DNA from: Acidobacteriota bacterium | GTDB taxonomy: Bacteria > Chloroflexota > Dehalococcoidia > SM23-28-2 | Direction of reading: 5' to 3' | Assembly: GCA_048636435.1 (NCBI GenBank) | Contig: JAIVWR010000001.1 | Location: 1 to 26,687 of the forward strand | DNA: 26,687 nucleotides | Shown: in pieces, positions 11,539 through 26,687 of the stretch | Layout: every line of letters begins with the position of its first letter | Numbering within the stretch: the first letter of the stretch is position 1 | The notes under the pieces: generated by a model | Database searches by the model: none | What the model was told of the DNA's origin: nothing | What the model saw: the letters and a program-made list of their open reading frames with translations, nothing else | Made by a program: the position numbers and the translations under genes

Positions 11539-11928
11539 CTACTGCTTCTTCTTCTCCTCCTCCTCCTCCTCTTCCTCCTCCACCAGCTCCAGCTGGGCCA
11601 TCCGGGCGCCATCGCCCTGACGCGGCCCCAGCTTGATGATGCGCGTATAGCCGCCGGGCCGACTGGCATAGCGAGGCCCCAGCTCATCGAAGATCTTCTT
11701 CACCACATCCTTGTCGCTCACGATGCGCAGGGCCCGTCGGCGGGCGTGAAGAGTTCCATGCCTGCCCAGCGTGATCACCTTCTCGGCGATGCTCCGCAGT
11801 TCCTTCGCCTTGGCCTCGGTGGTCACGATCTTCTCATGGCGTAGAAGATCGGTCACCTGGTTGCGAAACATAGCCAGACGATGGCTTGGGGAGCGACCCA
11901 GCCTGCGTCCGGCGATACGGTGCGCCAT
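11539..11928 (-). CDS. rplQ: 50S ribosomal protein L17 with an E9-KKKQ tail
   Basis: [46 protein letters not shown]. Confidence 0.98.
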
Positions 11929-11934
11929 GTCGGC

Positions 11935-13230
11935 CTAGCCCTCGCTCTCCTCGCTGACCTCTTCCTTCAGCTTTTGCAGCATCCGCTGCCACTCGGCCAG
12001 CTCTTCGCCCTCTTCTTTAGCCGCAGGCGCTGGCTCTTCCGCCTTGGCCTTAGCCTTAGCCTTAGCCTTAGGCTTGGCCTTGGCCTCGGCCTCCTCTCCC
12101 TCAGCCGGCGCGGCCACCGCCTCCTCAGCAGGCGCTGGCGCCGCCACCTCGGCCGCTTCCGGCAGCGCTGCCTCTTCGACGACCACCACTGGCTCCGCCG
12201 CTACAGCCGCTGCCTCCTCGCCACGACCGACCACTGCCGGCAGCCCTTCCTCCTCGATCACCGAGGGGACCTCGACCGGCACTTCCTCCTCCACCGTCTC
12301 CTCGGGCAGGAAGTCTAGCTCCCGCAGGCGCGTCTTGAGCTCATCGTAGGACTTGCGGCCGAAGTTGCGTAGGGCGAGAAGTTCGTCCTCGCTCTTCTCC
12401 AGCACCTCACCCACCGTCATCAGCCCGCTGCGCTTCAGGCAGTTGTAGGCCCGCACCGACAGACTGAGGTCCTCAATGGCCGTGTTGTAGCGGTCGGCCG
12501 TTAGGACCGTGCCCGCACCCAGACCGTGTTCCACCACCGGCGGCGCCGGCTTGCCCAACTGACTGAACGGGGAGAGCTGCTCCAAAAGGATATCGGCACT
12601 CTGGCTCATGGCGTCCACGCCGGTGATGGTTCCGTCCGTCCACGCCTCCAGCACCAGGCGGTCATAGTTGCTGATCTGGCCCACGCGGGTGCGCTCCACC
12701 CTATAGTTCACCTTGCGCACCGGCGTGAAAATGGCGTCCACCGGGATTACCCCGATGGCCAGTTCATCGCTCGCCCCCGCCGGGACGTAGCCATGGCCCT
12801 GCTCCACGTTGAACTCCACCCTCAGCTCCCCCTCCGCCGAATCCAGCGTGGCCAGGTGCAGCTCAGGGTTGAGGATCTCATAGTCCGGCGGAACTTGGAT
12901 GTCGGCGGCGGTTATTCCCCCTTCACGACCGCTCACCTCCAGCAGCAGCGTGCCCGGCTGGTCGGACAGAGCCCGCAGCCGCAGCTCCTTCACGTTCAGG
13001 AGGAACTCGATGGTGTCCTCCTTCATGTGAGGAATGGTAGAGAACTCGTGCTGTATGCCGTCGATGCGCACCGAGGTAATTGCAGCGCCCAGCAGAGAGC
13101 TGAGAAGAACCCTCCTCAAGGAATTGCCCACGGTGGTGCCGAAGCCCGGCTCCAGAGGCTCGGCGACGATGCACACATAGTTGTCGTCGCTCTCCACAAT
13201 CTCAATCTGGGGAACGACCAATTGGGTCAC
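11935..13230 (-). CDS. rpoA: RNA polymerase subunit alpha with a 123-aa acidic C-terminal extension
   Basis: EPLEPGFGTTVGNSLRRVLLSS, DAIFTPVRKVNY, alphaCTD IEDLSLSVRAYNCLKRSG..NFGRKS. GTG start at 13230 with SD GAGGAGG. Confidence 0.97.
   Translation of the reverse strand: MTQLVVPQIEIVESDDNYVCIVAEPLEPGFGTTVGNSLRRVLLSSLLGAAITSVRIDGIQHEFSTIPHMKEDTIEFLLNVKELRLRALSDQPGTLLLEVSGREGGITAADIQVPPDYEILNPELHLATLDSAEGELRVEFNVEQGHGYVPAGASDELAIGVIPVDAIFTPVRKVNYRVERTRVGQISNYDRLVLEAWTDGTITGVDAMSQSADILLEQLSPFSQLGKPAPPVVEHGLGAGTVLTADRYNTAIEDLSLSVRAYNCLKRSGLMTVGEVLEKSEDELLALRNFGRKSYDELKTRLRELDFLPEETVEEEVPVEVPSVIEEEGLPAVVGRGEEAAAVAAEPVVVVEEAALPEAAEVAAPAPAEEAVAAPAEGEEAEAKAKPKAKAKAKAKAEEPAPAAKEEGEELAEWQRMLQKLKEEVSEESEG
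12040..12081 (-). repeat. 6-nt microsatellite encoding KAKPKAKAKAKAKA in the RpoA tail
   Basis: (AAGGCT/AAGGCC)n on the minus strand; TTAGCC repeats visible on the plus strand. Confidence 0.85.
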
Positions 13231-13266
13231 AGAGACCCACCTCCTCACTCTGGCAACAAGCGGTTG

Positions 13267-13893
13267 CTAACGCGAGTAGTACTCAACAACAGTAGCCGGG
13301 TCGAACTTGGCGGCGATGTCTTCCATGGTGGGTGGCGATAGCACCCGACCCGTCATCTGCTCACCGTCCAGGCTCAGCCAGGATGGAAGAGACCGCTCAG
13401 CCACCTGCTCCTTGACTACCTGGAAGATTCCACTCTTCGCCCCCCTCGCCGTCCAACCGATGACATCGTTCACCTTGATGACGTGAGAGGGGATATCGGC
13501 CTTGCGGCCGTTTACGCTGATATGACCATGCAGCACCCACTGGCGGGCCTGGTTGCGCGAATCGGCGAAGCCCAGACGATAGACAACATTGTCCAGGCGC
13601 ATCTCCATGATGCGCAGCAGATCCTCGCCGGTGATGCCCTTGTTCCGCACCGCCTCCCTGTAATAGCGGCGGAACTGGCGCTCCATCAGGCCGTAGGTGG
13701 AGCGCGCCTTCTGCTTCTCCCGCAGCTGAAGGCCGCGGTCGGACACCCTGCGGCGCCGCATAGAGCGGCGCCCGGGTGCGTAGGGACGGCGCTCGAAGGG
13801 ACAGCGGGGAGTGTAGCACTTCTCCCCTTTCAGATAGAGCTTTTCGGCCAAGCGCCGGCATATTCGACAAACAGGTCCTCTGTAGCGTGCCAC
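13267..13893 (-). CDS. rpsD: 30S ribosomal protein S4 (Zn-binding form)
   Basis: ARYRGPVCRICRR..KC...C, QLREKQK, EMRLDNVVYRLGFA. GTG start with SD AAGGAG. Confidence 0.98.
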   Translation of the reverse strand: MARYRGPVCRICRRLAEKLYLKGEKCYTPRCPFERRPYAPGRRSMRRRRVSDRGLQLREKQKARSTYGLMERQFRRYYREAVRNKGITGEDLLRIMEMRLDNVVYRLGFADSRNQARQWVLHGHISVNGRKADIPSHVIKVNDVIGWTARGAKSGIFQVVKEQVAERSLPSWLSLDGEQMTGRVLSPPTMEDIAAKFDPATVVEYYSR

Positions 13894-13932
13894 TAGCTCT
13901 CCTTCACCACCTGAGAGATAAACGTCCCCACC

Positions 13933-14328
13933 CTACACTCGCCGCCGCTTGGGTGCGCGACAACCGTTGTGGGGAATAGGGGTCACGTCGCGGATGCTCA
14001 TCACCTGGATGCCCGCCCCCTGGAGAGAGCGAATGGCCGCCTCGCGCCCGCTACCCGGGCCCCTCACATAGACCTCCACCTGGCGCAGCCCGTGCTCCAT
14101 CCCCCGCTTCGCCGCCCTATCCGCCGCTATCTGGGCAGCGTAGGGCGTACTCTTGCGAGAACCCTTGAAGCCGGCCGTGCCCGCACTGGCCCAGGCGATC
14201 ACGTTGCCGTTGGGGTCAGTCAGCGTAATGATGGTATTGTTGAACGTGGACTGAATGTAGGCACGGCCCACGGGAATGTTCTTGCGCTCCCGCCGTCGTG
14301 CCCGGCCCCGGCCTTTCTTTTCAGCCAT
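13933..14328 (-). CDS. rpsK: 30S ribosomal protein S11
   Basis: [36 protein letters not shown]. Confidence 0.98.
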
Positions 14329-14360
14329 ATCGCTCCTTGCTGCTTACCTGTAGTTGGCCC

Positions 14361-14744
14361 CTACTTCTTGGTCATCGCCCGCCGCCTGCCAGCCACCGTC
14401 TTGCGCGGGCCTCGCTTGCAACGAGCGTTGGTCCGGGTGCGCTGGCCACGCGCCGGCAGGCCACGGCGATGGCGCACCCCCCGATAGCAGTTGATCTCGA
14501 TGAGGCGCTGCACATTCTGCCGCACTCCCTTGCGCAGCTCGCCTTCCACCGTATAGTTCCGGTCGATAAACTCACGGATGCGGTTGATCTCGTCGTCCGT
14601 TAGGTCCCGCACCTTGGTGGCGGGCTCCACCCGTGCGTTGTCGCAAATGTTGTGGGACAGAGTGGGCCCTATGCCGTAGATGTAGCGCAGCGACACGTCC
14701 ACCCGCTTGTCCCTGGGAATGTCCACGCCAGCAATACGTGCCAT
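14361..14744 (-). CDS. rpsM: 30S ribosomal protein S13
   Basis: [33 protein letters not shown]. Confidence 0.98.
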
Positions 14745-14754
14745 AATGCCTCCT

Positions 14755-14868
14755 CTACCCTTGGCGCTGCTTGTGCCTCGGGTTTTCGCAGATCACCCTC
14801 ACCACACCCTTGCGACGCACGATCTTGCACTTATCGCACCGTCGCTTGACCGAAGCCTGTACTTTCAT
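14755..14868 (-). CDS. rpmJ: 50S ribosomal protein L36 (Zn-binding form); absent from the ORF track
   Basis: Hand translation gives [37 protein letters not shown] (37 aa), between infA and rpsM. Confidence 0.97.
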
Positions 14869-14894
14869 CGTCAGTCCTACTACCGCCGAAAAGC

Positions 14895-15113
14895 CTAGCG
14901 GAGCCGATAGGTAATCCTACCACGAGTGAGGTCGTATGGCGACAACTCTACCAGCACTCGGTCCCCGGGCAGGATACGGATGAAGTGCACCCGTATCTTG
15001 CCAGAGGCGTGGGCAAGAACCAGGTGCCCGTTAGGCAGCTCTACCCGAAACACAGCATTGGGCAGCGCTTGTTTCACTACCCCTTCGACCTCTATAGCCT
15101 CTTTCTTACCCAT
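14895..15113 (-). CDS. infA: Translation initiation factor IF-1
   Basis: [55 protein letters not shown]. Start ATG 15113 (72 aa). Confidence 0.97.
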
Positions 15114-15143
15114 AAACGGCCCGCAGGCCAATCACCCCCAGAT

Positions 15144-15173
15144 AGTTTACCAGCATCCTCAAGGAAGCGTCAG
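15144..15173 (-). promoter_or_regulatory. Candidate internal promoter for infA-rpmJ-alpha operon
   Basis: Minus strand: CTGACG (15173-15168), 18 nt, TAAACT (15149-15144), preceded by a TGn extended -10 motif. Confidence 0.5.
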
Positions 15174-15908
15174 CACCTCCGCCTCGCCTTCCGTGATCAC
15201 TATCGTGTGCTCGAAGTGGGCGGCGAGGCTACCATCGGCTGTCCGCACCGTCCAGCCGTCGGAATCCTTCTTCGTTTGCCAATTACCGGCCGTGACCATC
15301 GGCTCCAACGCCAGCGTCATGCCCTTCTGGAGCAGCGGCCCCCGGTCGGGCGGCCCGAAGTTGGGCACCTGCGGCTCCTCGTGCATACTCCGACCGACGC
15401 CATGGCCCACGTACTCCCGCACGACAGAGAAGCCGTTCCCTTCGGCGTGAGTCTGGATAGCCGCCGAAATCTGCCCCAGACGGGCGCCGGCCTTCGCTGC
15501 CTTGATGCCCTGCCAGAGCGCCTCCTCCGTTACCCGCACAAGGCTCTCGGCCACGGGGCTTATCCTCCCGACGCCCACGGTGATGGCGGCATCGCCCACG
15601 AAACCCTTGTACGTGGCTCCCAGGTCGATGCTCACGATGTCGCCCTCCTGAAGGATGCGGCTATCCGGTATGCCATGCACCACCTCGTCGTTCAGAGACA
15701 CACAAGCGCGCGCCGGGTAGCCCTGATAGTTCAGGAAGGTGGGAACCACCTTTCTCTTGGCGAACTCCCGCCGCACAATGTCGTCCAGCTTCTTGAGCAT
15801 CAGCCCCGGCCGAAGCTCCTGCCGCAGCATATCCAAAACCTCGGCCACAGCCCGGCCCGCCTGCCGCATCAAGGCTATCTCCTCGGGCCCCTTCAGCTCG
15901 ATAGGCAT
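15159..15908 (-). CDS. map: Methionine aminopeptidase type I
   Basis: CVSLNDEVVHGIP, DIVSID, GD.A.T, GHGVG..MHEEP, ALEPM, AAHFEHT. Confidence 0.97.
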   Translation of the reverse strand: MPIELKGPEEIALMRQAGRAVAEVLDMLRQELRPGLMLKKLDDIVRREFAKRKVVPTFLNYQGYPARACVSLNDEVVHGIPDSRILQEGDIVSIDLGATYKGFVGDAAITVGVGRISPVAESLVRVTEEALWQGIKAAKAGARLGQISAAIQTHAEGNGFSVVREYVGHGVGRSMHEEPQVPNFGPPDRGPLLQKGMTLALEPMVTAGNWQTKKDSDGWTVRTADGSLAAHFEHTIVITEGEAEVLTLP

Positions 15909-15928
15909 GGATTCTCGTGGGCTCCTCC

Positions 15929-16576
15929 CTAGGAACCCTCCACAGCCGCCAGCAGGTTCTCAGCAACATCCTCCACTGACTTATGACCGTCTATCTCCAC
16001 CAGCTTGCCCCTCTCCCGGTAGTAGTCGATGAGGGGCGCCGTCTGCTGGGCATAGACCTCCAGACGCCTTCGCGCCGTCTCAGGCTTATCGTCCTCTCGC
16101 TGGTACAGCTCGCCGCCGCACTGGTCGCAACGACCAGCCTCCCGCGGCGGCTGGAAGCGCTCGTGATAGACGCTCCCGCACTGCCGACAGTTCCACCGGC
16201 CGGAGAGACGGCTCAACAGCTCGTCCTGCGGCGCCTGGATATAGACCACCTTGTCGATGGCCCTGCCCTCCCGAGCCAGGGCCTCATCCAGAGCGGTCGC
16301 CTGCTCCAGCGTGCGAGGGAAGCCGTCCAGGATGCAGCCGCCGGCACAGTCGCCCTGCGACAGGCGCTCCAGCAGCATCGCGATAGTCAAATGATCGGGC
16401 ACCAGTTGGCCCTGATCGTAGTAGACCTTGGCCTGCTTCCCCAGCTCCGTCTCCTGTCTAATAGCCTCCCTGAACAGTTCCCCTGTCGTAATGTGCACCA
16501 ACCCCGTCTTTTCGGCCAGGATTGCTGCCTGGGTTCCTTTGCCCACACCTGGGGCACCAAAGAGGATAACGTACAA
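15929..16576 (-). CDS. adk: Adenylate kinase (Zn-LID type)
   Basis: P-loop GAPGVGKGTQ, LDGFPRT, LID C..C...C..C, QREDD. TTG start. Confidence 0.96.
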   Translation of the reverse strand: MYVILFGAPGVGKGTQAAILAEKTGLVHITTGELFREAIRQETELGKQAKVYYDQGQLVPDHLTIAMLLERLSQGDCAGGCILDGFPRTLEQATALDEALAREGRAIDKVVYIQAPQDELLSRLSGRWNCRQCGSVYHERFQPPREAGRCDQCGGELYQREDDKPETARRRLEVYAQQTAPLIDYYRERGKLVEIDGHKSVEDVAENLLAAVEGS

Positions 16577-16593
16577 GGGCCCTCGTCCACCCC

Positions 16594-17958
16594 CTAGCGG
16601 ATGAAGCCCTCGTACTGACGCATCAGCAACTGGGCCTCTAGTTGGCGCATCGTATCCAGCACCACACCCACCACGATGATCAGGCCGGCGCTGGTGATGC
16701 CCAAGGATAATCCCCCTCCGCGGCCTAAACTAAGAGATTGCTCCCCCGTCAGGGCCGAGGCGAAGAAGGGTATCACCGCAACAAAGCCAAGGAAGAGAGC
16801 ACCAGCCCAGGTGATGCGAATGAGCACCCGCGTAATGTACTCCGCCGTAGGGCGCCCCGGCCGGATCCCGGGGATAAAGCCCCCCTGCCGCTGCAGGTTC
16901 TCCGCCAGGTTCTGCTGCTGGAAGATAACCATCGTATAGAAAAAGGCAAAGATCACCACCAATAAGAACAGAAAGATCCAGTACCCCCAGCTTGCGGGAT
17001 CGAAGACCCCCTTCACCTTGTCCGCCACGTTCGCTAACCAGACGGTGTCCGATGCCTCGAACATGCTGGCCGCATACGCCGGAAAGATCACGATCGAAAA
17101 AGCGAAGATGAGAGGGATCATCCCTGCCGAGTTCACCCGCAGCGGGATGTGCGTCTGACCCGACTGCCGGTACATCCGCCCGCCTCGGAACAGGCTGCGC
17201 GAGTACTGAACCGGGATGCGCCTCTGGGCCTCCTGGAAGAACACGATGATCCCGAGGATGAAGACGATGAACAGAACCAGCATCACAACGCCCGTCATGG
17301 CGGTCGAGGTATACACCTCGGTCCAGATCATCCGCGGTATGTTGGCGACGATGCCGGCGAAGATGAGCACCGATATGCCATTGCCGAGCCCCTTCTCAGT
17401 GATCAACTCGCCCAGCCAGACCAGGAACATGGTGCCAGCCGTCATAGTGGTGATCATGGAAAGAGTGGGTATCAAAGCATCGCCGGTAAGGCCTATCTTT
17501 GTCTCTGCCCCGAAACCGCCCAGGTTGTTGATAAGGAACAGCTGCCCGTAGCCCTGGACAATGCACATGGGTATTGTCAGATAGTGAGTGTAGATCTGGA
17601 TCTGGCGCCGGCCCTGCTCCCCCTCCTTCGTCAAAGCCTGAAGTTGGGGCACTATGGGAACGAGTAGCTGCATGATGATGGAGGACGTCACGTAGGGGTA
17701 GACCCCCAGCGCAGCCACACTCATGTTCCGCAGGGCACCCCCGCTGAAGATGTTGAGGAAGCCAAGGACAGCATTCCCCTCGAAAATGTCCGACAAGGCA
17801 TCCCTGTCGACGCCTGGAAGCGGCAGGTTGGCCACAAAGCGGAACACCACCAGCAGCAATAGAGTGAATATGATCTTCCACCGGACGTCCGCCTGCTGGA
17901 AAGCGTCGATGACGGCCTGGAGAAGCCGCGGCCTAGCGACGGTGGGCGCTCGCGCCAT
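16594..17958 (-). CDS. secY: Preprotein translocase subunit SecY
   Basis: [72 protein letters not shown]. Overlaps the rplO end by 26 nt. Confidence 0.97.
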
Positions 17959-18403
17959 GAGCCACCTCCTCGACGCTTCCTCCAGCCGCCTCGATCTTCC
18001 CCTTGGCCACCGCCGAGAACCTGTGGGCCCGCACTATCAGGGCCTTGGTTATCTCGCCGTCGCCCAGAACCTTCACCGGCTGTCTCAAAGTCTTGATAAT
18101 TCCTACCTCGCGCAGGAGTTCGGGTGTCACCTCTGTGCCCTCCTCAAAGCGCTCCAGTTGCTTCAAGTTCACGGGCGCATACTCCACCCGGAAGATGTTG
18201 GTGAAACCCCGCCGCCGGGGCAGACGCTTGATGAGAGGCGTCTGGCCTCCCTCGAAGCCTAGGCGAGGCCCGCCGCCCGAACGCGACTTCTGGCCCTTCG
18301 AGCCGCGCCCTGAATGGCTACCGTGACCGCTCCCGTCGCCGCGACCGACTCGCTTTCGCTTGTGACGAGCGCCTTTAGGGGGTCTTAACTCGTGGGCTTG
18401 CAT
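17933..18403 (-). CDS. rplO: 50S ribosomal protein L15
   Basis: [45 protein letters not shown]. Confidence 0.98.
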
Positions 18404-18405
18404 CC

Positions 18406-18591
18406 CTACTCCTCCACCTCCTCCACCTCTACCAAATGGCGCACTCTAAGTATCATACCACGCACAACTGGCGAGTCGCTATGTTCCACCACCTGCCTCA
18501 AGCGCCGCAGCCCCAGGGCGCGGATAGTCCGCCGCTGGTTTGCCGCGTAGCCGATGGCGCTCTTCCTCCAGGTGATCTTAAGCTTGGTCAT
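18406..18591 (-). CDS. rpmD: 50S ribosomal protein L30
   Basis: [31 protein letters not shown]. Confidence 0.96.
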
Positions 18592-18597
18592 CGCTCC

Positions 18598-19125
18598 CTA
18601 CGTCTCGACGGTAGCCAGAGCTCGACGGCTGGCCACCGCCGACTTGACGTCCTTCATCTGAGAAAGACCGAGCATGGTGGCTTTCACCACGTTCACCGCG
18701 TTGTCGCTGCCCAGCGACTTTGCCACCACGTCCCGAATGCCCGCCATCTGCAACACCGCTCGCACGCCCCCGCCAGCGATGAGGCCGGTGCCCGGCGGCG
18801 CCGGCTTCATGAGCACCTTGGCAGCGCCAAAGTGCACCCACACCTCGTGGGGGATAGTCGTTCCCTTCATGGGAATCTTGATCAGGTTCTTGCGCGCTAT
18901 GGTGGTAGCCTTACGGATGGCTTCGGGCACCTCCCTGGCCTTGCCTATGGCCGCACCTACACGCCCCTCGCCGTCACCTACCACCACCACGGCGGTGAAG
19001 TGGAAGCGGCGGCCTCCCTTGACCACCTTGGCCACTCGGTTGATGAACACCACCTTCTCGGCCAACTCCAGCTCCAGCGGCTCGATCTTCTGGTCAGCGG
19101 CTAGGTATTTCCTGGGATTCGACAT
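18598..19125 (-). CDS. rpsE: 30S ribosomal protein S5
   Basis: [41 protein letters not shown]. Confidence 0.98.
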
Positions 19126-19137
19126 CTCTCCCCATCT

Positions 19138-19506
19138 CTAGATCACGAGCCCGCCCTTGCGAGCGGCATCAGCCAGCGCCTTGACCCGACCGTGAAACTT
19201 GTAGCCGCCACGGTCGAACACCACCGTCCCGATGCCTTTCTCTTGGGCACGCTCGGCCAATCGCTGCCCCACGAGGCTGGCCACCTCTGTCTTGCGCTTG
19301 CCGTTAGCCTGCTGACGGATGTCCGCCTCCAGGTCGCAGGCGGCTACCAGCGTGTGGCCGCTCTCATCATCGATCACCTGAGCATAGATGTGCTTGGGGC
19401 TGCGAAAGACGCACAAACGTGGCCTCTGGGGCGTGCCCACGACCTTCTGACGCACCCGCCGGTGTCGATGCACTCGGGCTGCTCGCGCTGTCTTCTTGCC
19501 TTTCAT
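19138..19506 (-). CDS. rplR: 50S ribosomal protein L18
   Basis: [45 protein letters not shown]. Confidence 0.98.
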
Positions 19507-19508
19507 GA

Positions 19509-20057
19509 CTAATGCTTAATGATCTTCCCCGCCTTGCCTGCCTTGTGGCGGACCCTCTCACCCTGATAGCGGATGCCCTTGCCCTTGTAGGGATCAGGCG
19601 GCCGCACAGCACGAATATCGGCTGCCACCTGGCCCACCAGTTCCCTGCTCATGCCCTCCACCATCACTCGACTCGTGCCCACCACCGTCACGCTGATCTC
19701 AGGCGGCGGCGTTATCTCCACCGGCCGCGAGTAGCCCACCTGCAGCACCAGCTTCTGCCCCTGCAGCTGGGCTCGATAGCCCACCCCGTGCAGCTCCAGC
19801 ATCTTGCTGAAGCCCTCGGTCACGCCGGTGACCATGTTGGCCAGCAAACTGCGAGTGAGGCCATGCAGCGAGCGATGCTCGGGCCGGTCGCTGGGCCGGC
19901 TGACCAGCAGCTGGCCATCGTCCAGACGAATGTCAATGTCACGGTGAAACTGGCGGCTGAGCTCCCCCTTGGGGCCGCTTACAGTCACCCGGTCACCCTC
20001 GATCTTCACCTTCACCGCCGAGGGAATGACTATCGGCTGTCGGCCTATCCGAGACAT
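19509..20057 (-). CDS. rplF: 50S ribosomal protein L6
   Basis: [41 protein letters not shown]. Confidence 0.98.
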
Positions 20058-20070
20058 TACCCCTTATCCC

Positions 20071-20463
20071 TTACCACACGTAGCAGAGGACCTCGCCACC
20101 CACCCGCCGGCGCCAGGCCTCCTGTCCGGTCATTACCCCCTGAGGGGTGGTGAGGATGGCGATGCCCAAGCCTCCATACACACGCGGGATCTCCCGCTTC
20201 TGCACATACACCCTCAGGCCGGGCTTGCTTACCCGCCGCAGACCGCTGATACTGGGCTCCTTGCCGCTGTAAGCCAGATCGATACGCACGGCCCTCTTGA
20301 CGCCCTCAGGCACTACCTCGAAGCCCTTAATAAACCCCTCTTCCCTCAGCACCTTCGCGATAGCGATCTTCATCTTGGAGGCCGGCACCTGAACAGACTG
20401 GTGCCTGGCTACCATCGCATTGCGAATGCGCGTCAGCAGATCGGCGATGGGGTCGGTCACCAT
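20071..20463 (-). CDS. rpsH: 30S ribosomal protein S8
   Basis: [53 protein letters not shown]. Confidence 0.98.
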
Positions 20464-20476
20464 TATGTATCACTCC

Positions 20477-20665
20477 CTACCAACTGGATTTCTTGACCCC
20501 GGGCAATTTGCCCTCTAGCGCCAGCTCGCGGAAACAGATACGGCAGAGAGCAAACCGCCGCATATAGGCCCGCGGCCGCCCGCACAGCCTGCAGCGATTA
20601 TTCCGCCGCACCTTGTATTTCGGTTCCTTGTAAAAGGCCTTAACGTAAAGGGCCTTACGGGTCAA
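20477..20665 (-). CDS. rpsZ: 30S ribosomal protein S14, type Z (short Zn-binding form)
   Basis: [11 protein letters not shown]...LCRICFRE...PGV.KSSW, 62 aa. TTG start with SD AAGGAGG. Confidence 0.96.
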
Positions 20666-20700
20666 TGGTCCCTCCTTGCCCCGCCTGCCTCCAAGCAGGC

Positions 20701-21246
20701 TCAGCTACGGGCGAAAGGCATGCCCAACAGCTCCAGCAGCCGCTTGCCCTCCTCATCGCTCCTAGCCGTCGTTACCACCGTTATCTGAAAGCCTCGAATG
20801 CGGTCGATCTTATCGTAGTCCACCTCGGGAAAGATCAACTGCTCCTTGATGCCCAGGCTGTAGTTGCCGCGCCCATCGAACGAGTCGGGCGAAACCCCCT
20901 GAAAGTCGCGAATACGGGGCAGCGCGGCGTTCACCATACGGTCGAACAGCTCGTACATGCGGTCCCCCCGCACCGTCACCGAAAGACCGATAGGCATCCC
21001 CTTGCGGATCTTAAAGGCCGCGATGGACTTCTTAGCATGGTTGATCACCGGCCTCTGCCCTGTGATTGTGGCCGCGTCCTCAGCCGCCGAGTCCAGGGCC
21101 TTCGGGTTCTGGATTGCCTCCCCCAGGCCCACGTTCAGCACCATCTTCTCCAGGCGTGGCGTCTGCATTACGCTCTTATATCCGAACTCCTTCACAAGGG
21201 CCGGCACCACTTCCTCTCGATATCGCTCTTTAAGCCGGGGCGCCAT
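20701..21246 (-). CDS. rplE: 50S ribosomal protein L5
   Basis: [54 protein letters not shown] 21246 (or GTG 21249). Confidence 0.98.
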
Positions 21247-21257
21247 CACTATTACTC

Positions 21258-21569
21258 CTAGTCCAGGGACTGATCGCAGTGGCGGCAGAAGCGCACCTTG
21301 CCGCCGTCATCACGGAAGCGAAAACCCACCCGCGTTGGCTTGTTGCAGCTCTTGCAGATGACCATGACGTTGGACACGTGGATGGGCGCCTCCCTTTCGA
21401 TGATCCCTCCGGGGCGGTCGGCGCGCGGTCGCATGTGACGCTTCACTATATTCACGCCGGTGACAATCAGCCGCCTCTGGCGCGGTGCCACCTGACGGAC
21501 CACGCCCGTCTTGCCCCTCTCCTTGCCCTTGATAATCAGCACTGTGTCTTCGCGCCTGATCTTGGCCAT
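21258..21569 (-). CDS. rplX: 50S ribosomal protein L24
   Basis: KOW motif [34 protein letters not shown]. Confidence 0.97.
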
Positions 21570-21571
21570 GG

Positions 21572-21940
21572 CTACACCACTTCCGGTGCCAGGGACACGA
21601 TCTTCATGAAGTTCTTCTCCCGCAGCTCGCGAGCCACCGGCCCGAAGATGCGCGTGCCCCTCGGATTCAAGTCGTCGGTCAGGATGACAGCCGCGTTCTC
21701 ATCGAAGCGGATGTGGCTGCCATCCGGCCGGCCGTACCCCTTGGCCACCCTCACCACCACCGCTCTGACCACCTCGCCCTTCTTCACTGAGGAGCCAGGG
21801 ACAGCCTGCTTGATCGTACCCACGAAAACGTCGCCCACGCGGGCATACCGACGGCGTGTGCCACCCAGCACCCGAATGCACATGATCTGGCGGGCGCCGG
21901 TGTTGTCGGCCACCTTGAGGCGCGTAGACGACTGGATCAT
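21572..21940 (-). CDS. rplN: 50S ribosomal protein L14
   Basis: [47 protein letters not shown] overlap with the rpsQ stop. Confidence 0.98.
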
Positions 21941-22761
21941 GATTCCTGCGTTTCTTCCTTCTCAGACTGCTCTTCCTCTTCAGCCTTCGATTGGTCTTCC
22001 TCTGCCGGCGGCTGCTCTTCCTCCGCGGCCTCCGGCGCCTTCTCCTCTGCCGGCGGCTGCTCTTCCTCCGCGACCTCAGCCTTCTCCTCTGCCGGCGGCT
22101 GCTCCTCTTCCGCGGCCTCCGGCGCCTCTTCCTCTGCCGGCGGCTGCTCTTCCTCCGCGGCCTCCGGCGTCTCTTCCTCTGCCGGCGGCTGCTCTTCCTC
22201 CGCGGCCTCAGGCGTCTCTTCCTCTGCCGGCGGCTGCTCCTCTTCCGCCGCCTCCGGCGCCTCTTCCTCTGCCGGCGCCTCCTCCTCAGCCACCGCTGGC
22301 ACCTCCTCGGCCACTGCCTCCTCCTCCGCTGGTGCCGCCTCTTCCTCAGCCACCGCTGGCACCTCCTCGGCCACTGCCTCCTCCTTCGCTCGTGCCGCCT
22401 TTTCCTCCGCCGCCGCGGCTTCAGCAGCTATCGCCTCGTCCAGTTCCCTCACCTCCTCAGCCACCTCTTCCTCGATGATTGCCTTCTCCTCCTCGGGCAG
22501 GGCAGCGGTCGTCAGGATCTCGGCCACCTGCCAGCGCTTGTCCCGCGATAGGGGCCGCGTCTCCACGATGAGCACCTTATCGCCCACCCGACAGGCGTTC
22601 TCCTCGTCGTGCGCCTTGTAGCGCGTCACCCGCCGCATGATCTTCTTGTACAAACGATGCCGCTTGAGGGACCCAACTGCCACCACCACCGTCTTCGACA
22701 TCTTGTCTCTGACTACCACCCCCACACGGGTCTTCTGGCGACCGTGGCTGACTTTCGCCAT
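21937..22761 (-). CDS. rpsQ: 30S ribosomal protein S17 with a ~187-aa acidic tandem-repeat C-terminal extension
   Basis: Residues 1-87 are canonical S17 (G.VV.DKM.KTVVV, H..YKK, YKAHDE.N, GD.V.I.ETRPLS..KRW); the rest is E/A/P-rich repeat up to the stop overlapping the rplN start. Confidence 0.96.
21994..22260 (-). repeat. In-frame 45-nt tandem repeat, 6 copies (one 42 nt), unit (A/T)[13 protein letters not shown](E/K/D)
   Basis: S17 residues 168-256; near-identical DNA units (TCTGCCGGCGGCTGCTC recurs on the plus strand). Confidence 0.95.
22267..22383 (-). repeat. In-frame 60/57-nt duplication, unit [16 protein letters not shown](A)PAE
   Basis: S17 residues 127-165; two near-identical DNA copies. 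Confidence 0.9.
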
Positions 22762-22762
22762 C

Positions 22763-22993
22763 CTACTCCTTCTCAGCGACCGCCTGCGCGACCAACTGCC
22801 GCTCCTTCTGGATCGTCTTCAGCCGAGCAATCCGCCGCTTGATCTGCCTGATCTGCCGGTAGTTGGACTCCTGGCGGGTCATCCAGCGCAGCCGCAGCGA
22901 GAAGAGACGACGGTGCGCCTCCTCCATCTCCTTGGCCAGGTCGCCATCCGACAGGTGGCGAATCTCATCAGCCCTTCGGTTGACCCTTGTCAC
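22763..22993 (-). CDS. rpmC: 50S ribosomal protein L29
   Basis: C-terminal part of the track's 181-aa ORF: [33 protein letters not shown] start at 22993 (or 22996) right after the rplP stop. Confidence 0.93.
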
Positions 22994-22995
22994 CA

Positions 22996-23421
22996 CTATT
23001 CCCCCAAGGCCGTCGCCTCGCGAGCCACCACCCGTGTGGGAATTGGCAGCTTGTGCGACGCCAGCCGCATGGCCTCCCGTGCCACGTCCTCCTGCACACC
23101 AGCGATCTCGAACAGAATCCTCCCCGGCTTGATCACCGCCACCCAGTGGTCGGGGGCAGCCTTGCCGCTGCCCATGCGCGTCTCCGCTGCCTTCTTGGTC
23201 ACGGACTTGTCGGGGAAAACGCAGATCCACACCTTGCCGCCACGGCGCATGTGGTGAGTGATGGCGCGACGCGCGGCCTCGATCTGGCGGGCGGTCATCC
23301 AGGTGCATCCCAGCGCCTGAAGCCCGAACTCGCCGAACGTCACCTTGTTGCCGGCAGTGGCTTTGCCTCTGCGCCGGCCTCGATGAACCTTCCGATGCTT
23401 CACTCGCTTAGGCTGCAGCAT
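22996..23421 (-). CDS. rplP: 50S ribosomal protein L16
   Basis: [46 protein letters not shown]. Confidence 0.98.
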
Positions 23422-23427
23422 GACCGC

Positions 23428-24108
23428 TCACTCCCCAGCGCTCGGCGAGGGGGATTCCTCCTCTTCTGCTCGTTCCTTGGCCTCGGGCACAATATCGCCC
23501 TTATAAATCCAAACCTTGACGCCAATACGGCCGAGCGCGGTGTGGGCCTCCGCGGTGCCGTAGTCGATGTCCGCTTTCAGGGTGTGCAAAGGCACTCGCC
23601 CCACCATCTCCGTGTCCGTGCGCGACATTTCCCTGCCGCCCAGACGCCCCGCCACCTTGATCTTGATGCCCTCGACCCCCCGTTGCATTGTTCGGGCCAC
23701 CGTTTGCTTCATCGCCCGCCGATGCGACACTCGCCGCTCCAGTTGATCTGCCACCGCCCTGGCCACCAGGGTAGCGTCCATCTCCGGCATGCGGATCTCG
23801 ACGATGTTCACCCGCATGCGCCGACCGCTCAGCCCCTCCAGCTCCTTGCGCACCTCGTCCACCCGCTGGCCGCCGCGGCCGATCACGATGCCCGGCCGCG
23901 CCGTGTGAATGGTCACCGTCACCTGGTTAGCGTTGCGGTCGATCTCCACATTGGACACGCCAGCATCGACCAGCATTCGACTGAGCACCTTCCGGATAGT
24001 CAGATCCTCGTGCAGGAGAGCGGTGTAGGTCTTCTCGGCGAACCACCTGCTCTTCCAGCCGTACAGATAGCCGAGGCGAAAGCCGTGGGGGTGAACCTTC
24101 TGACCCAT
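23428..24108 (-). CDS. rpsC: 30S ribosomal protein S3
   Basis: [61 protein letters not shown]. Start ATG 24108 with SD GGAGG. Confidence 0.98.
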
Positions 24109-24109
24109 G

Positions 24110-24448
24110 CTAGCCTCCAACCTCCTCTACTACAATCGTAACGTGGCTGCGTCGCTTCAGGATGGGAGATGCCCGGCCGCGGGCGCGCGCCCGCCATCGC
24201 TTCACCACCGGCGCATCGCCAGCATAGGCAGCGATGACTCGCAGGTAACGCGGGTCTATCTGGTAGTTGTTCTCGGCGTTCGCTACCGCCGACCGCACCA
24301 CCTTGGCCACCACCCTGGCATGAGGTGACGGCAAGTGGCGCAGACGGGCCAGAATCTCGGTCGTGCTCCTGCCCGGCAACTGCTCGAGGACAAGCCGTAT
24401 CTTCTTAGGCGATACGGCCACGTTCCTGGCTACGGCTCTCACCTGCAT
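24110..24448 (-). CDS. rplV: 50S ribosomal protein L22
   Basis: [38 protein letters not shown]. Confidence 0.97.
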
Positions 24449-24457
24449 ACTACGTCC

Positions 24458-24748
24458 CTACCGCCGCTGCACCTTGGTGAACTTCTCCGACCGACCACCG
24501 TGGCCACGGAAGGTGCGCGTCAACGCGAACTCCCCCAAGCGGTGGCCGACCATGTTCTCAGTAATAAAGATGGGCACATGGCGCCGACCGTCGTAGACCG
24601 CGATCGTCAGCCCGACCATCCCAGGCATGATAGTGGACGCCCTCGACCAGGTGCGAATGACCGTCTTCTGGCCTGACCGCTGCACCGCCTCGATCTTCTT
24701 CGCCAGCTTGGCTTCTATGAATGGCCCCTTCTTGGTCGATCTGGTCAA
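24458..24748 (-). CDS. rpsS: 30S ribosomal protein S19
   Basis: [45 protein letters not shown] start. Confidence 0.98.
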
Positions 24749-24758
24749 CGCCTACCCC

Positions 24759-25589
24759 CTACCTGCCACCGCGACGTCGCACAATGTACTTGTCGCTGCC
24801 CTTGCGCCGGCGCGTGCGATAACCCAGCGCCGGCTTGCCCCACGGCGTCTTCGGCCCGGGCATACCGATGGGAGCCTTGCCCTCGCCGCCGCCGTGAGGG
24901 TGATCATTCGGGTTCATGGCCGAGCCACGCACCGTGGGCCGCCTCCCCATGAGGCGGGCACGCCCTGCCCGGCCGAGCTTGATCTGACTGTGTTCAGCGT
25001 TGCCCACCTGCCCGACAGTCGCCAGGCAGTCGGCCAGGATCTTGCGTATCTCCCCCGAGGGCAGCCGCACGAGCACGTATCGCTCCTCCTTAGCCATCAC
25101 CTGGGCAGAACCACCGGCACTGCGCACCAGTTGACCGCCCCGCTTCAACGCCAGCTCCACGTTGTGCACCGCCGTGCCCAGCGGCATCCTCCTCAGGGGC
25201 AGAGCATTGCCCGGCCGTATTTCCGCCTCGGGGCCGCACACCACCGTATCCCCCACCTTCAGGCCCACCGGCCAGAGGATGTAGCGCTTGTCGCCGTCCG
25301 CGTAGTGGATAAGGGCGATGCGCGCCGAGCGGTTGGGGTCGTATTCGATGGCTGCCACCTTGCCCGGCACGCCAAAGTTGTCCCGCTTGAAATCGATAAG
25401 CCGCAGCATCCGCTTGGCGCCGCCGCCGCGGTGGCGCACGGTGATCCGCCCCTGACGGTTGCGACCCGCCTTCCTCTTCAAGGGTACCGTCAGAGACTTC
25501 TCCGGCTTCTTCTTGGTTATCTCCTCGAAGGTGTAGCCGGTCGCTCCCCGGCGGCCGGGAGACGTGGGCTTGTACTGCTTAATCCCCAT
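24759..25589 (-). CDS. rplB: 50S ribosomal protein L2
   Basis: [58 protein letters not shown]. Start ATG 25589; the track's 25685 start is too far upstream. Confidence 0.98.
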
Positions 25590-25591
25590 CT

Positions 25592-25888
25592 CTACACACC
25601 CTCGAACAGCTCGATCTTGTCCCCTGGTGCCAGGGTGACGATAGCCTTCTTCCAGGTGGGTCTGACGACTTGCCTTCTGCCCCACCTTCGCTGCTTGCCC
25701 CTCACGTTCATCACGTTAACCGCCATCACCCGCACCTCGAAGGCCTTCTCAACCGCCTGCTTGATCTGGATCTTGTTGGCTCCTCTCGCCACCCGAAAGG
25801 CATACTTGTCCTCGGCCAGCAGGTAGCTGCCCTTCTCAGTCATCAGGGGCTGCTCGATTATGTCGTAGGGGTGAAGGGCCTTGGGCAT
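25592..25888 (-). CDS. rplW: 50S ribosomal protein L23
   Basis: P..TEK, Y.F.V...[26 protein letters not shown]. Confidence 0.97.
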
Positions 25889-25889
25889 C

Positions 25890-26573
25890 CTAGCTCGCCT
25901 CCTGCCCGCCGGCAGCCACGCCCGTCCTTGGCCGCCGCTGCCCCACGCGATCGCCGCCCCAAAGGGCTTCGCAGCGGCGCACCGCCGCCACCGTCATCAC
26001 CAGAACGCGATGCCTGATCATGTCCACCACGTTGAGGTAGTCGGCGGGCAGAACCTTCGTCTTCGGTATGTTATGGGCGCTCATGCGCACGCCCCGGTCC
26101 GGCTCGCCGGTGACGATGAGAGCCGACCGCTCTATGCCGATGTTTGTCAGCACGCTCACCATGTCCTTTGTGCGCGGCTTCTCCAGGGCCAGCTCCTTGA
26201 CCACCACCAGGCGGCCGTCGGCCACCTTGCCCGATAGCACCGAGCGGATGGCCAGCCGCTTCATGCGCTTGGGCAATGCCTGGCGATAGCTGCGAGGCTT
26301 AGGCCCGAAGGCGACACCGCCGCCCCGACGGTGGGGCGCGCGATTCGTCCCCTGACGCGCCCGGCCAGTCCCCTTCTGTATGCGCACCTTGGCGGTGCTG
26401 CCCCGTTTCTCGCTCCGTGTCTTCGTGCTGGCGGTGCCAGCCCGCTGATTGGCCTGCTGAGCCACAAACGCCTGATGCACCACCGCCCGGTTAGGCTTGA
26501 TAGCGAATACCTGATCGTCCACTGTGATTGCCTTCAACTTGGCTCCCTTAGCGTTGTATACGGGAAGCTTCAC
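25890..26573 (-). CDS. rplD: 50S ribosomal protein L4
   Basis: RAGT.STKTRSE, QKGTGRARQG, GGGVAFGPKPRSY, KKM/KRMKRLA..S.LS. GTG start. Confidence 0.97.
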   Translation of the reverse strand: MKLPVYNAKGAKLKAITVDDQVFAIKPNRAVVHQAFVAQQANQRAGTASTKTRSEKRGSTAKVRIQKGTGRARQGTNRAPHRRGGGVAFGPKPRSYRQALPKRMKRLAIRSVLSGKVADGRLVVVKELALEKPRTKDMVSVLTNIGIERSALIVTGEPDRGVRMSAHNIPKTKVLPADYLNVVDMIRHRVLVMTVAAVRRCEALWGGDRVGQRRPRTGVAAGGQEAS

Positions 26574-26687
26574 GACTTCTTGCCCTCAGTATCCTCAGCC
26601 GGAGGCTCCTCGGCCTTCGCCTCCTCAGCCGGTGGCTCCTCGGCCGGCGGCTCCTCAGCCGGCGGCTCCTCGGCCGTGGGCTCCTCG
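26570..26687 (-). CDS. rplC: 3' end of the gene preceding rplD (probably L3), consisting of an acidic repeat tail; partial
   Basis: Minus-strand frame from 26686 reads EEPTAEEPPAEEPPAEEPPAEEAKAEEPPAEDTEGKKS*, with TGA overlapping the rplD GTG (GTGA). The L3 identity rests only on S10-operon gene order; no L3 core is inside the window. Confidence 0.7.
   Translation of the reverse strand, partial: EEPTAEEPPAEEPPAEEPPAEEAKAEEPPAEDTEGKKS
26597..26686 (-). repeat. In-frame 15-nt tandem repeat, at least 6 units, EEPPA consensus
   Basis: GAGGAGCCGCCGGC(C/T) units; the array runs off the window edge. Confidence 0.9.

Follow-up and report, generated by a model that had tools for sequence, protein, structure and literature searches.

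In E. coli, S6 receives a poly-Glu tail from RimK, and acidic flexible C-termini are present on L7/L12 and on the archaeal and eukaryotic P proteins. Genetically encoded C-terminal low-complexity regions rich in Ala and Glu have been described on bacterial ribosomal proteins by Ntountoumi et al. (2019, NAR; PMC6821194), who place the low-complexity regions of these proteins on the ribosome surface and leave their function open. Their list, in which dominance by Ala and Glu means a combined content of at least 70%, contains S2, S16 and L25 (each in more than 100 genera) together with S3, S6, L3, L10, L17, L19, L21 and L31. In Mycoplasma pneumoniae, 11 of the 52 ribosomal proteins are longer than in E. 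coli, mostly through regions predicted to be disordered; such extensions are “common throughout the bacterial kingdom”, their role is elusive, and disruption alters fitness (Xue et al. 2022, Nature; PMC9534751). For the transcription machinery, the delta subunit (RpoE) of Firmicutes RNA polymerase has a disordered C-terminal region of net charge -47 that displaces DNA and RNA from the polymerase and increases specificity, with a Lys tract needed for function (PMC7749165, PMC9674986), and the phase-separated polymerase clusters of E. coli include NusA (Ladouceur et al. 2020; PMC7414142).

We analysed one contig (26,687 nucleotides, hereafter the window, meaning this whole stretch) of a Dehalococcoidia metagenome-assembled genome that is 78% complete; the host order consists of small-genome, marine-sediment Dehalococcoidia. 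An earlier note had described acidic tails on S17, RpoA, a probable L3, L17 and S3, and all five are present in the sequence where it placed them, on the minus strand. Judged from sequence, the tails are genuine, translated and presumably intrinsically disordered polyanionic Glu/Ala/Pro extensions. The longest belongs to S17 (rpsQ, 21937-22761, 274 aa), whose conserved core of 86 aa (22504-22761) carries a net charge of +14. The C-terminal tail (residues 87-274; 21940-22503) consists of a conserved head, 60-nt and 45-nt tandem repeats coding for Glu, Ala and Pro, and the end EETQES; Tandem Repeats Finder reports these arrays as 45-nt x6.5 and 60-nt x2.3. Its 188 residues include 78 Glu, 2 Asp, 48 Ala and 22 Pro, giving a net charge of -71; Ala and Glu together make up 126 of the 188 residues (67%), or 79% with Pro. 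The tail region is present in contigs of four independent metagenome runs, none of which spans the entire repeat, and the length variants found in metagenomes (255, 258 and 3 nt) are all in frame. Many families of the Dehalococcoidia have a long S17 frame. The tail measures 104-188 aa in families f1, f3, f5 and f6, compared with 24-27 aa in f2, and every relative keeps the Glu frame across hundreds of repeat bases up to the conserved EETQES end.

At the edge of the window, a frame upstream of rplD runs to the contig edge with 38 aa of PPAEE-type repeats plus a stop (26570-26687, minus strand), the stop overlapping the start of rplD. The rest of this protein lies on a second contig, C26 (10104-10838), where a body matching Pfam Ribosomal_L3 reaches the open contig end in the same repeat; the probable L3 is therefore L3 (rplC), with a tail of at least 73 aa. 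In close relatives it measures 100-140 aa. Its arrays have 15/30-nt units, and the Glu frame is kept in relatives up to a conserved TEGKKS-like end. Smaller additions are found on the minus strand in L17, with the end ELV, nine Glu and KKKQ (11542-11589) and a CTC x9.3 array; in S3, with an acidic, Ser- and Pro-containing tip of 18 aa (23431-23484); and in L30, with the tip VEVEEVEE (18409-18429; 9-nt x2.3 repeat). The poly-Glu tip of L17 occurs only in f1, and A/P/E tails of 77-84 aa are present on L17 in two other Dehalococcoidia; the S3 tip is 18 aa across most of f1 and becomes an E/A/P tail of 62-116 aa in f5 and f6.

The earlier note had proposed, among other roles, docking sites for a PPAEE-binding partner. 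Could the repeats be a common docking code, in which PPAEE-type units bind one partner that gathers ribosomes and RNA polymerase? The QPPAEE of S17 and the PPAEE of L3 have a core in common, and the units of NusA, S1 and S2 are loosely similar. However, the S17 units of relatives are unlike those seen here (EEAPAAAVAEEAAPEVES in G025, EEGQPPSEEEEPQAG in G003), those of L3 vary (PKAEE, PVAEEAKAEE, PRAEE), and the L3 tail is confined to f1. Composition is the only thing in common, no repeat motif being common to the tails of different proteins or relatives, and we regard a docking code as the least credible of the explanations considered.

Outside the window, tails are present on S1, S2, S16, L25, L31, NusA and KhpA, and at the N-terminus of NusG; in S17, L3, L17, S3, S1, S2, S16, L25 and L31 the tail is C-terminal. 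The genome-wide scan that the earlier note had called for was run in six frames, and Glu-dense segments were assigned by Pfam/NCBIfam. At a strict threshold (12 or more Glu within 30 aa), 12 proteins contain a Glu-dense window, against 0.19 windows expected by chance in the proteome. Eight of them act in transcription or translation (S17, S1, L3, L25, L31, NusA, KhpA and RpoD), compared with about 80 of 1371 genes in this class (odds ratio 36, Fisher p ~4e-8), the figure of 80 being our own estimate, based on genes that we called ourselves in an incomplete genome. A looser threshold adds RpoA, S2, NusG, L17, HPF and SSB, and the S16 tail of about 71 aa was found separately from the Glu-window scan. 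Glu is the commonest residue in every tail, while Pro makes up 4-28% of the tails other than that of S17, and some tails miss the 70% mark for Ala plus Glu.

Compared with the low-complexity regions of PMC6821194, these tails are likewise C-terminal and rich in Ala and Glu, and seven carriers (S2, S16, L25, S3, L3, L17 and L31) are shared; Ala/Glu tails on these proteins have been published already (Ntountoumi 2019; Xue 2022). In contrast, S17, RpoA, NusA, NusG and KhpA are absent from that list, and the present tails are far longer, Pro-rich, nearly free of Asp and borne by a dozen proteins in one genome. For Mycoplasma, polyanionic repeat tails are not part of the description (PMC9534751), and the transcription machinery is not covered. 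The S6 of this genome (C26:2-172), although its homologue is listed in PMC6821194, ends in RKEEGESAAP and has no tail. The tails resemble those of RimK-modified S6 and the stalk proteins in being flexible and acidic or Glu-rich, and they extend ribosomal proteins at termini that the literature locates at the ribosome surface, but they are encoded in the DNA, belong to other proteins and greatly exceed them in length. What we describe is an extreme, lineage-wide case of the known ribosomal protein tail phenomenon.

The distribution over cores bears on the idea of built-in chaperoning, raised in the earlier note, according to which an acidic tail would shield the basic RNA-binding surface of a new ribosomal protein until it meets rRNA. 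A strongly basic core (+12 to +17) is combined with an acidic tail in S17, L3, L17 and S3, and acidic dedicated chaperones serve eukaryotic ribosomal proteins (PMC4598080, PMC6131548). However, tails are also borne by cores that are already acidic (RpoA -18, S1 -12, L25 -7, NusA -5, KhpA -4), the charge of the S17 tail is five times that of its core, and the very basic S11, S13, L2, L15, S4 and S19 of the same cluster have none. A chaperone or charge neutraliser is therefore improbable.

Adaptation to salt or cations, either as halophile-like acidification or as a local reservoir of Mg2+, K+ or polyamines around the ribosome, was also considered. Halophiles typically have acidic low-complexity regions (PMC6821194), and Glu-rich tails might bind counter-ions. 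In this genome, however, the proteome is not acidified (Glu 7.15%, Asp 5.33%, Lys 2.96%, Arg 7.66%; median net charge of whole-proteome proteins -0.018 per residue), protein cores are normal, and the 12 studies whose metagenomes contain window DNA sampled marine sediment, cold seeps and vent sediment, none of them under a hypersaline label. Halophile-type acidification of the proteome was rejected on these grounds, in agreement with the earlier note, and salt or cation adaptation as a whole is very unlikely.

The tail of RpoA (gene 11935-13248, minus strand) follows the alphaCTD and comprises 125 aa (residues 313-437; 11938-12312), over which a Pfam search found no domain. It contains 34 Glu and no Asp, has a net charge of -22 and includes a 6-nt x7.7 repeat array. 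An acidic motif is followed by an A/E/P spacer, a Lys-Ala tract (12041-12086), a further acidic stretch, a helix with a Trp residue and an acidic terminus. Every family of the order has the tail, with open frames measuring 379-554 aa, and the basic island lies in the same place in all relatives and is conserved in an alignment of 30 genomes. In the same 30 genomes the terminal amphipathic helix (11944-11994; EE-x-[AP]-[ED]-W-[QK]-R-x-L-x-x-L) has a nearly invariant W420 (at least 90%) and invariant R422 and L424. In an AlphaFold model of an RpoA fragment this helix (fragment residues 175-191) has a pLDDT of about 80 and residues 74-171 stay below 50. The tail is thus modelled as disordered, and it is strongly acidic with an embedded Lys tract, the combination that characterises the delta C-terminal region.

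Like delta, it would be a disordered polyanion tethered to RNA polymerase with a Lys tract, which reads KAKKKKAKK in delta and KAKPKAKAKAKAKA in RpoA. The two differ in that the RpoA tail is fused to the alphaCTD and present in two copies per enzyme, is less charged, and has at its end a conserved Trp helix, a feature absent from delta; delta is anchored by its N-terminal HARE-HTH domain and the RpoA tail by the alphaCTD. The HARE-HTH domain (PF05066) was not found in this genome (G000, 78% complete), in a search whose controls detected the B. subtilis and L. lactis proteins. As far as we found, the RpoA tail would be the first extension beyond the CTD of a bacterial alpha subunit to show conserved motifs; none is mentioned in a 2026 review of alpha subunits.

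In E. coli, the AR2 repeat of NusA binds the alphaCTD. The NusA of the present genome likewise has a lineage-specific C-terminal addition past its KH domains, but it lacks the folded HhH repeats of AR1/AR2; Pfam finds NusA_N, S1 and KH only, with nothing after the KH domains. The addition is instead a block-charged disordered region, of low complexity except for an invariant RFAE motif (I/L-RFAE-[DE]) and a basic island with some 20 Lys/Arg, both in all families. The RpoA and NusA tails appear to be new. Each is a module of acidic, basic and acidic blocks that is conserved order-wide and contains an invariant motif, and both, NusA included, resemble the delta tail of Firmicutes; their conserved motifs point to a real function.

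Across the order and the class the tails recur, and they reach about 300 residues in relatives, compared with a maximum of 188 in this genome. Both patterns that the earlier note would have counted against it are lacking, since tails are enriched on expression proteins and their presence co-occurs at the level of clades. The co-occurrence does not extend to lengths within the order, where correlations between proteins are mostly weak (rho mostly between 0.0 and 0.3, with 0.63 attained by two of the ten pairs); S17 and S1 co-vary over family medians (rho 0.53, n=38, p=5e-4). Different families also lengthen different proteins (L3 only in f1, S3 only in f5 and f6, KhpA mostly in f1). With family-specific carriers, largely independent lengths and no common repeat motif, the tails represent a lineage tendency and not a fixed co-evolving system, and the notion of a coordinated coat is not upheld.

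Tails lengthen and shorten through in-frame gain and loss of tandem repeats, and sequence is not conserved in the process, whereas the frame and a negatively charged, disordered composition are. About 96 tandem-repeat arrays of various types are present in the genome: acidic on the expression machinery, Lys/Ala in a tail on GyrA, and Pro/Thr in linkers on extracytoplasmic proteins, among them an SLT protein and a cupredoxin-like one. Slippage is thus a general feature of the genome, and it is composition alone that depends on the protein class. This lends some weight to a near-neutral by-product, in which slippage-prone lineages accumulate expansions without a function of their own that survive where harmless, at solvent-exposed termini, only acidic, non-sticky compositions being tolerated on RNA-binding cytoplasmic proteins. 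Repeat units are young (88-96% alike) and differ between close relatives, contigs break inside tails as unstable repeats would cause, and the mostly uncorrelated lengths and family-specific tail sets fit weak, diffuse selection or none. On the other hand, the tails persist over an order and much of a class, not a single frameshifted (Arg- or Gly-rich) tail was found in about 40 genomes, and a neutral model does not predict the invariant motifs of RpoA and NusA. Mutational drift of base composition is not the cause, because family f2 combines equal or higher GC with short tails on S17, S1 and S2, and longer tails do not go with higher GC (for four proteins the two are not significantly correlated, and for S2 the correlation is negative, rho -0.47). 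The dN/dS of the tails is 0.19-0.37, a range biased downward by low-complexity alignments and inflated tail dS, and part of the conservation may be a DNA-level constraint, since the next gene begins in a region shared with the conserved ends of the tails. We infer that the tails are maintained by selection, and consider the near-neutral explanation possible but on the unlikely side.

We therefore favour two classes of tail, a ribosomal negative brush and conserved regulatory modules on RpoA and NusA, a division whose chances we judge to be evenly balanced. The nine ribosomal tails measured add about -225 charges per 70S. As a brush they would act through electrostatic and entropic repulsion and nucleic-acid mimicry, so that neither ribosomes nor free RNA-binding proteins would adhere unspecifically to RNA, DNA, basic proteins or one another. 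A ribosome carries several thousand rRNA phosphates, next to which this charge is small, so any brush effect rests on the reach and position of the tails and not on total charge; electrostatic spacing, as suggested in the earlier note, is possible. The RpoA and NusA tails, each with acidic segments around a Lys/Arg tract and an invariant short motif, would be regulatory modules. The RpoA tail might act like the delta C-terminal region fused in cis to alpha, the tethered polyanion competing with non-specific nucleic acid and the terminal Trp helix docking on a partner. A more speculative extension, which we hold to be rather doubtful, is that both block-charged tails form a tethered regulatory layer, a cis equivalent of delta and a replacement of the alphaCTD–AR2 contact, linking RNA polymerase, NusA and the acid-coated ribosome by multivalent electrostatics in coupling or condensates.

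Disordered extensions of ribosomal proteins are widespread, costly and unexplained, and in this lineage they are concentrated in a dozen tails and reach the transcription machinery. The lineage also provides natural contrasts, since a sister family is short-tailed and families tail different proteins, which makes the purpose of the tails testable by comparison. For the RpoA tail this offers a simple hypothesis, namely that a delta-like polyanion has been fused to a core subunit of the polymerase.

All five acidic tails reported for the standard ribosomal protein cluster (11539-26687, minus strand) are there as claimed. The cluster runs in the order L3 end, L4, L23, L2, S19, L22, S3, L16, L29, S17, L14, L24, L5, S14, S8, L6, L18, S5, L30, L15, SecY, Adk, Map, IF1, S13, S11, S4, RpoA and L17. 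The S17 tail extends 188 aa past an 86-aa core (E78, D2, A48, P22; net charge -71), and that of RpoA 125 aa past the αCTD (E34, D0; net charge -22). L17 ends in a 16-aa tip with a run of nine Glu, S3 in an 18-aa tip [15 protein letters not shown], and the frame before rplD holds at least 38 aa of PPAEE-type repeats reaching past the contig edge. This frame, previously called a probable L3, is indeed L3: the protein body (Pfam Ribosomal_L3) is found on contig C26 of the same bin, at its open end, with the same terminal repeat, and the L3 tail therefore measures at least 73 aa here; it reaches 100-140 aa in three close relatives. L24 (21258-21569, minus strand) carries a zinc-ribbon-like terminal extension of the CxxC...CxxC type (CKSC ... 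CRHC), which has no relation to the acidic tails.

According to Tandem Repeats Finder, in-frame tandem repeats build part of the tails, with units of 45 nt (6.5 copies) and 60 nt (2.3 copies) in S17, 15/30 nt in L3, 6 nt (7.7 copies) in RpoA and CTC (9.3 copies) in L17. In four independent metagenome runs, the S17 repeat region is matched by short contigs with 90-100% identity (at least 99% in most cases); no single contig of these runs bridges the repeat, so its copy number is unconfirmed by them. They point to S17 length variants of 255, 258 and 3 nt, each a multiple of three: within 22078-22342 a 255-nt skip (two runs) and a 258-nt go-back (one run), and an additional CCT at 22361 (one run). 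The skip and go-back joints, with flanking sides of 29-36 nt, are weak hints of in-frame length variants. Contigs of the bin end inside tail repeats at position 26687 of the window, at C26:10838 and at the ends of C141 and C46. C26 connects to the end of the window, and C141 (S16-khpA) probably precedes C46. Further tails may be lost to assembly gaps, an example being the orphan Glu-rich C-terminus at C51:1-132.

The source bin, of which the window is contig C1, comprises 1.37 Mb in 226 contigs (78% complete, 2.5% contaminated, 65% GC), and its closest named records are uncultured Dehalococcoidia of the Chloroflexota, such as CP070630.1 and SM23_28_2. Near-identical DNA to the window occurs in marine-sediment, cold-seep and vent-sediment metagenomes from 12 studies. 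Over the whole proteome Glu accounts for 7.2% and Asp for 5.3% of residues, with a median net charge of -0.018 per residue. We therefore reject halophile adaptation, in agreement with the earlier note: the proteome lacks acidification, and the habitats are those named here.

A search for Glu-dense segments in six frames of the whole bin, with subsequent annotation of the carriers, showed that the tails are more widespread than had been claimed. NusA carries 169 aa (acidic, basic, then six VEEQP units), S1 127 aa, S2 95 aa, S16 about 71 aa, L25 57 aa, L31 55 aa and KhpA 50 aa of Pro-Glu repeats, while NusG has an N-terminal extension of about 40 aa. Other Glu-dense segments are the HPF linker, RpoD region 1.1 and the usual SSB tip. 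Twelve proteins contain at least 12 Glu in 30 aa, compared to 0.19 windows expected by chance. Transcription or translation accounts for eight of them (RpoD, NusA, S1, L25, S17, L3, KhpA and L31); an anti-sigma factor, TatA, a Pro/Thr/Glu repeat protein and a 112-aa protein of unknown function make up the rest. Among the 1371 genes of our own gene call (89% coding density), the odds ratio is about 36 (p ~4e-8) when the expression machinery is set at an estimated 80 genes, and 31 (p 5e-12) at the looser threshold. The proposed tie to the expression machinery is thus borne out, and such tails are not equally common on unrelated proteins. Matches in enzymes (ArgH, a Nudix protein, TyrRS, methylmalonyl-CoA mutase) are weak, each a single window of 8 Glu in 20 aa, of which 16 are expected by chance. 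No Pfam or NCBIfam domain was found in any tail; the resemblance of the KhpA Pro-Glu repeats to Trypan_PARP was discarded as a match in composition only, under the cut-off. No annotation was obtained for three small proteins that bear short acidic tips (C3:5644-6081, C35:8586-9371 and C74:3276-3611).

Tandem Repeats Finder lists about 96 arrays in the whole bin, and from their variety we conclude that slippage is general. Pro/Thr(/Glu) repeat linkers occur, among others, at C131:1-213, C53:4573-4705, C102:3882-4023 and C141:126-253, in a cupredoxin-like protein, an SLT-domain protein and unannotated proteins, all probably extracytoplasmic. GyrA (C80:2277-5051, minus strand, locus L343, 925 aa) has a Lys/Ala-rich basic repeat tail (87 nt, two copies), opposite in charge to the tails of the expression machinery. 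The acidic Glu/Ala/Pro make-up is specific to expression-machinery proteins.

Tail lengths were determined across 41 genomes belonging to the same order (families f1 to f6). RpoA has a tail of 85-140 aa in each of the families measured, and all families have RpoA open frames of 379-554 aa; the NusA tail is 125-170 aa long in every complete gene measured (five of six families), and the L25 tail 24-57 aa in all families. Other proteins vary by family: S17 has 91-188 aa in f1, f3, f5 and f6 and 24-27 aa in both f2 genomes that were measured; S1 has 130-318 aa in f1, f5 and f6 (88 aa in one f5 genome) and about 30 aa in f2; S2 has 83-100 aa in most of the genus, about 37 aa in f2 and 44-158 aa in f5; and S3 has 18 aa in most of f1 and 62-116 aa in f5 and f6. 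L3 tails (18-140 aa) and the L17 poly-Glu are confined to f1, where most KhpA tails are also found. In two other Dehalococcoidia (loci L055 and L056), L17 bears 77-84 aa of Ala/Pro/Glu compared to the 16-aa tip in the window, a further case of lineages lengthening different proteins. The stop-to-stop S2 frame of the bin (L010, C43:949-2268) begins about 110 codons ahead of the S2 domain; in relatives, a separate small ORF, just upstream or on another contig, corresponds to the first ~85 residues of this frame. Judging from these sequences, the true S2 start is probably near residue 105-112 of the frame.

Within the order, most pairs of tails show no correlation in length (rho 0.0-0.3; 0.63 in two of ten pairs), and the tailed set differs by family, which argues against the coordinated system that had been proposed. 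GC content was rejected as a driver, since it shows no positive correlation with tail length and f2 is as GC-rich as the others. In a class-wide sample of 150 genomes, S17 open frames span 81 to 447 aa, with long ones in many families. S17 and S1 frame lengths covary when medians per family are compared (rho 0.53, 38 families, p 5e-4; two-by-two split of 10, 5, 4 and 19 families, p 0.005), which is suggestive only because families are not independent. Co-occurrence thus holds as a lineage-level tendency common to several proteins rather than random scatter, but no fixed set is gained and lost together.

The gene khpA, encoding a KH-domain RNA-binding protein, lies between rpsP and rimM (C141:3657-3743, C46:7937-8497; L254-L264 in relatives). 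It is tandemly duplicated in the source family, with two copies in the genomes G006, G003, G001, G002 and G011 and three in G008, most with their own Pro-Glu tail. On C46, the tail before khpA and the khpA tail are 88% identical in DNA. A transfer of the tail from S16 to KhpA was considered and rejected: the S16 gene is on C141 and has another tail, and the tandem copies show that the resemblance stems from gene duplication.

Could the tails have arisen near-neutrally, by repeat expansion filtered by tolerance alone? We regard this as a serious rival, if less likely than not. General slippage and the variable repeat units speak for it; the following observations speak for constraint. The Glu frame is kept through hundreds of repeat bases in all relatives, and no Arg- or Gly-rich frameshifted tail occurs among those examined. 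The same terminal residues are retained, ...EETQES in S17 of the genus and ...TEG-K/E-K/E-S in L3; overlap of the conserved ends with the start region of the next gene may explain part of this. Within the source family pairwise dN/dS is 0.19-0.37 for tails vs. 0.09-0.25 for cores, and below 1 in all tails, values to which we give little weight because alignment of low-complexity sequence favours identical residues and dS comes out inflated in it.

The RpoA tail differs from the ribosomal ones in that, as the alignment of 30 genomes (core identity down to ~68%) indicates, it bears motifs and its parts keep a fixed order. These are an acidic motif around an invariant Pro, a variable A/E/P spacer, a basic island (a Lys-Ala tract here, PVGRKSRK-like in f5), an acidic run and the terminal motif EE-x-[AP]-[ED]-W-[QK]-R-x-L-x-x-L, in which the Arg and first Leu are invariant and the Trp and second Leu occur in at least 90% of sequences. 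AlphaFold assigns a pLDDT of ~90 to the αCTD and below 50 to the tail, with the terminal motif predicted as a helix at ~80. More distant Dehalococcoidia end in a related helix (...M-R/K-R/K-K-L-Q-E-R-F); the tail is down to 10-40 acidic residues in other Dehalococcoidia and to 0-3 in Firmicutes. The NusA tail is modular as well, with an A/P/E spacer, PW-x-EV in most families, an invariant RFAE, a basic island of about 20 Lys/Arg and an acidic and hydrophobic end. A complex prediction of NusA (507 aa) with αCTD plus tail (193 aa), with an alignment for each, scored 0.00 and counts neither way. Database relatives of the α tail are all annotated as plain RNA polymerase α with the three standard Pfam domains only; our literature search returned nothing specific on an α post-CTD tail or on Chloroflexi ribosomal tails, and a 2026 review on α subunits makes no mention of a post-CTD extension.

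C-terminal Ala/Glu low-complexity regions placed on the ribosome surface have been catalogued for S2, S16, L25, S3, S6, L3, L10, L17, L19, L21 and L31 (PMC6821194). Seven proteins of that list are tailed here, while S17, with its long tail, is absent from it. In Mycoplasma pneumoniae, 11 of 52 ribosomal proteins are extended, and the authors describe extensions of this kind as common in bacteria (Xue et al. 2022, PMC9534751). The ribosomal tails are an extreme case of this published phenomenon; new are the spread over transcription factors and the tails of α and NusA with their motifs. NusA-dependent RNA polymerase condensates have been described in E. coli (PMC7414142).

As to function, the enrichment, recurrence in the clade and non-halophile setting uphold the earlier interpretation in part, and its coordinated system, docking code and self-chaperoning find no support. 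Built-in chaperoning of basic cores is not a general explanation, because RpoA (core charge -18), S1 (-12), L25 (-7), NusA (-5) and KhpA (-4) are all tailed, the S17 tail has five times the charge of its core, and the very basic neighbours S11, S13, S4, L2 and L15 have no tail. A common PPAEE-binding partner is likewise disfavoured: the ribosomal tails are mostly composition-only, and their repeat units vary from protein to protein and among close relatives. Our preferred reading, an inference, is a flexible anionic brush on the ribosome, where nine measured tails sum to about -225 charges; it would act by electrostatic and entropic repulsion and by nucleic-acid mimicry. The RpoA tail can be likened to the C-terminal region of the Firmicute δ subunit, which is disordered, has a net charge of -47, requires its Lys tract for function and displaces DNA and RNA from RNA polymerase (PMC7749165, PMC9674986); δ was not found in the 78% complete bin. 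In the preferred reading, the tail of α in these Dehalococcoidia would be an analogue of that region, fused in cis to the polymerase subunit.
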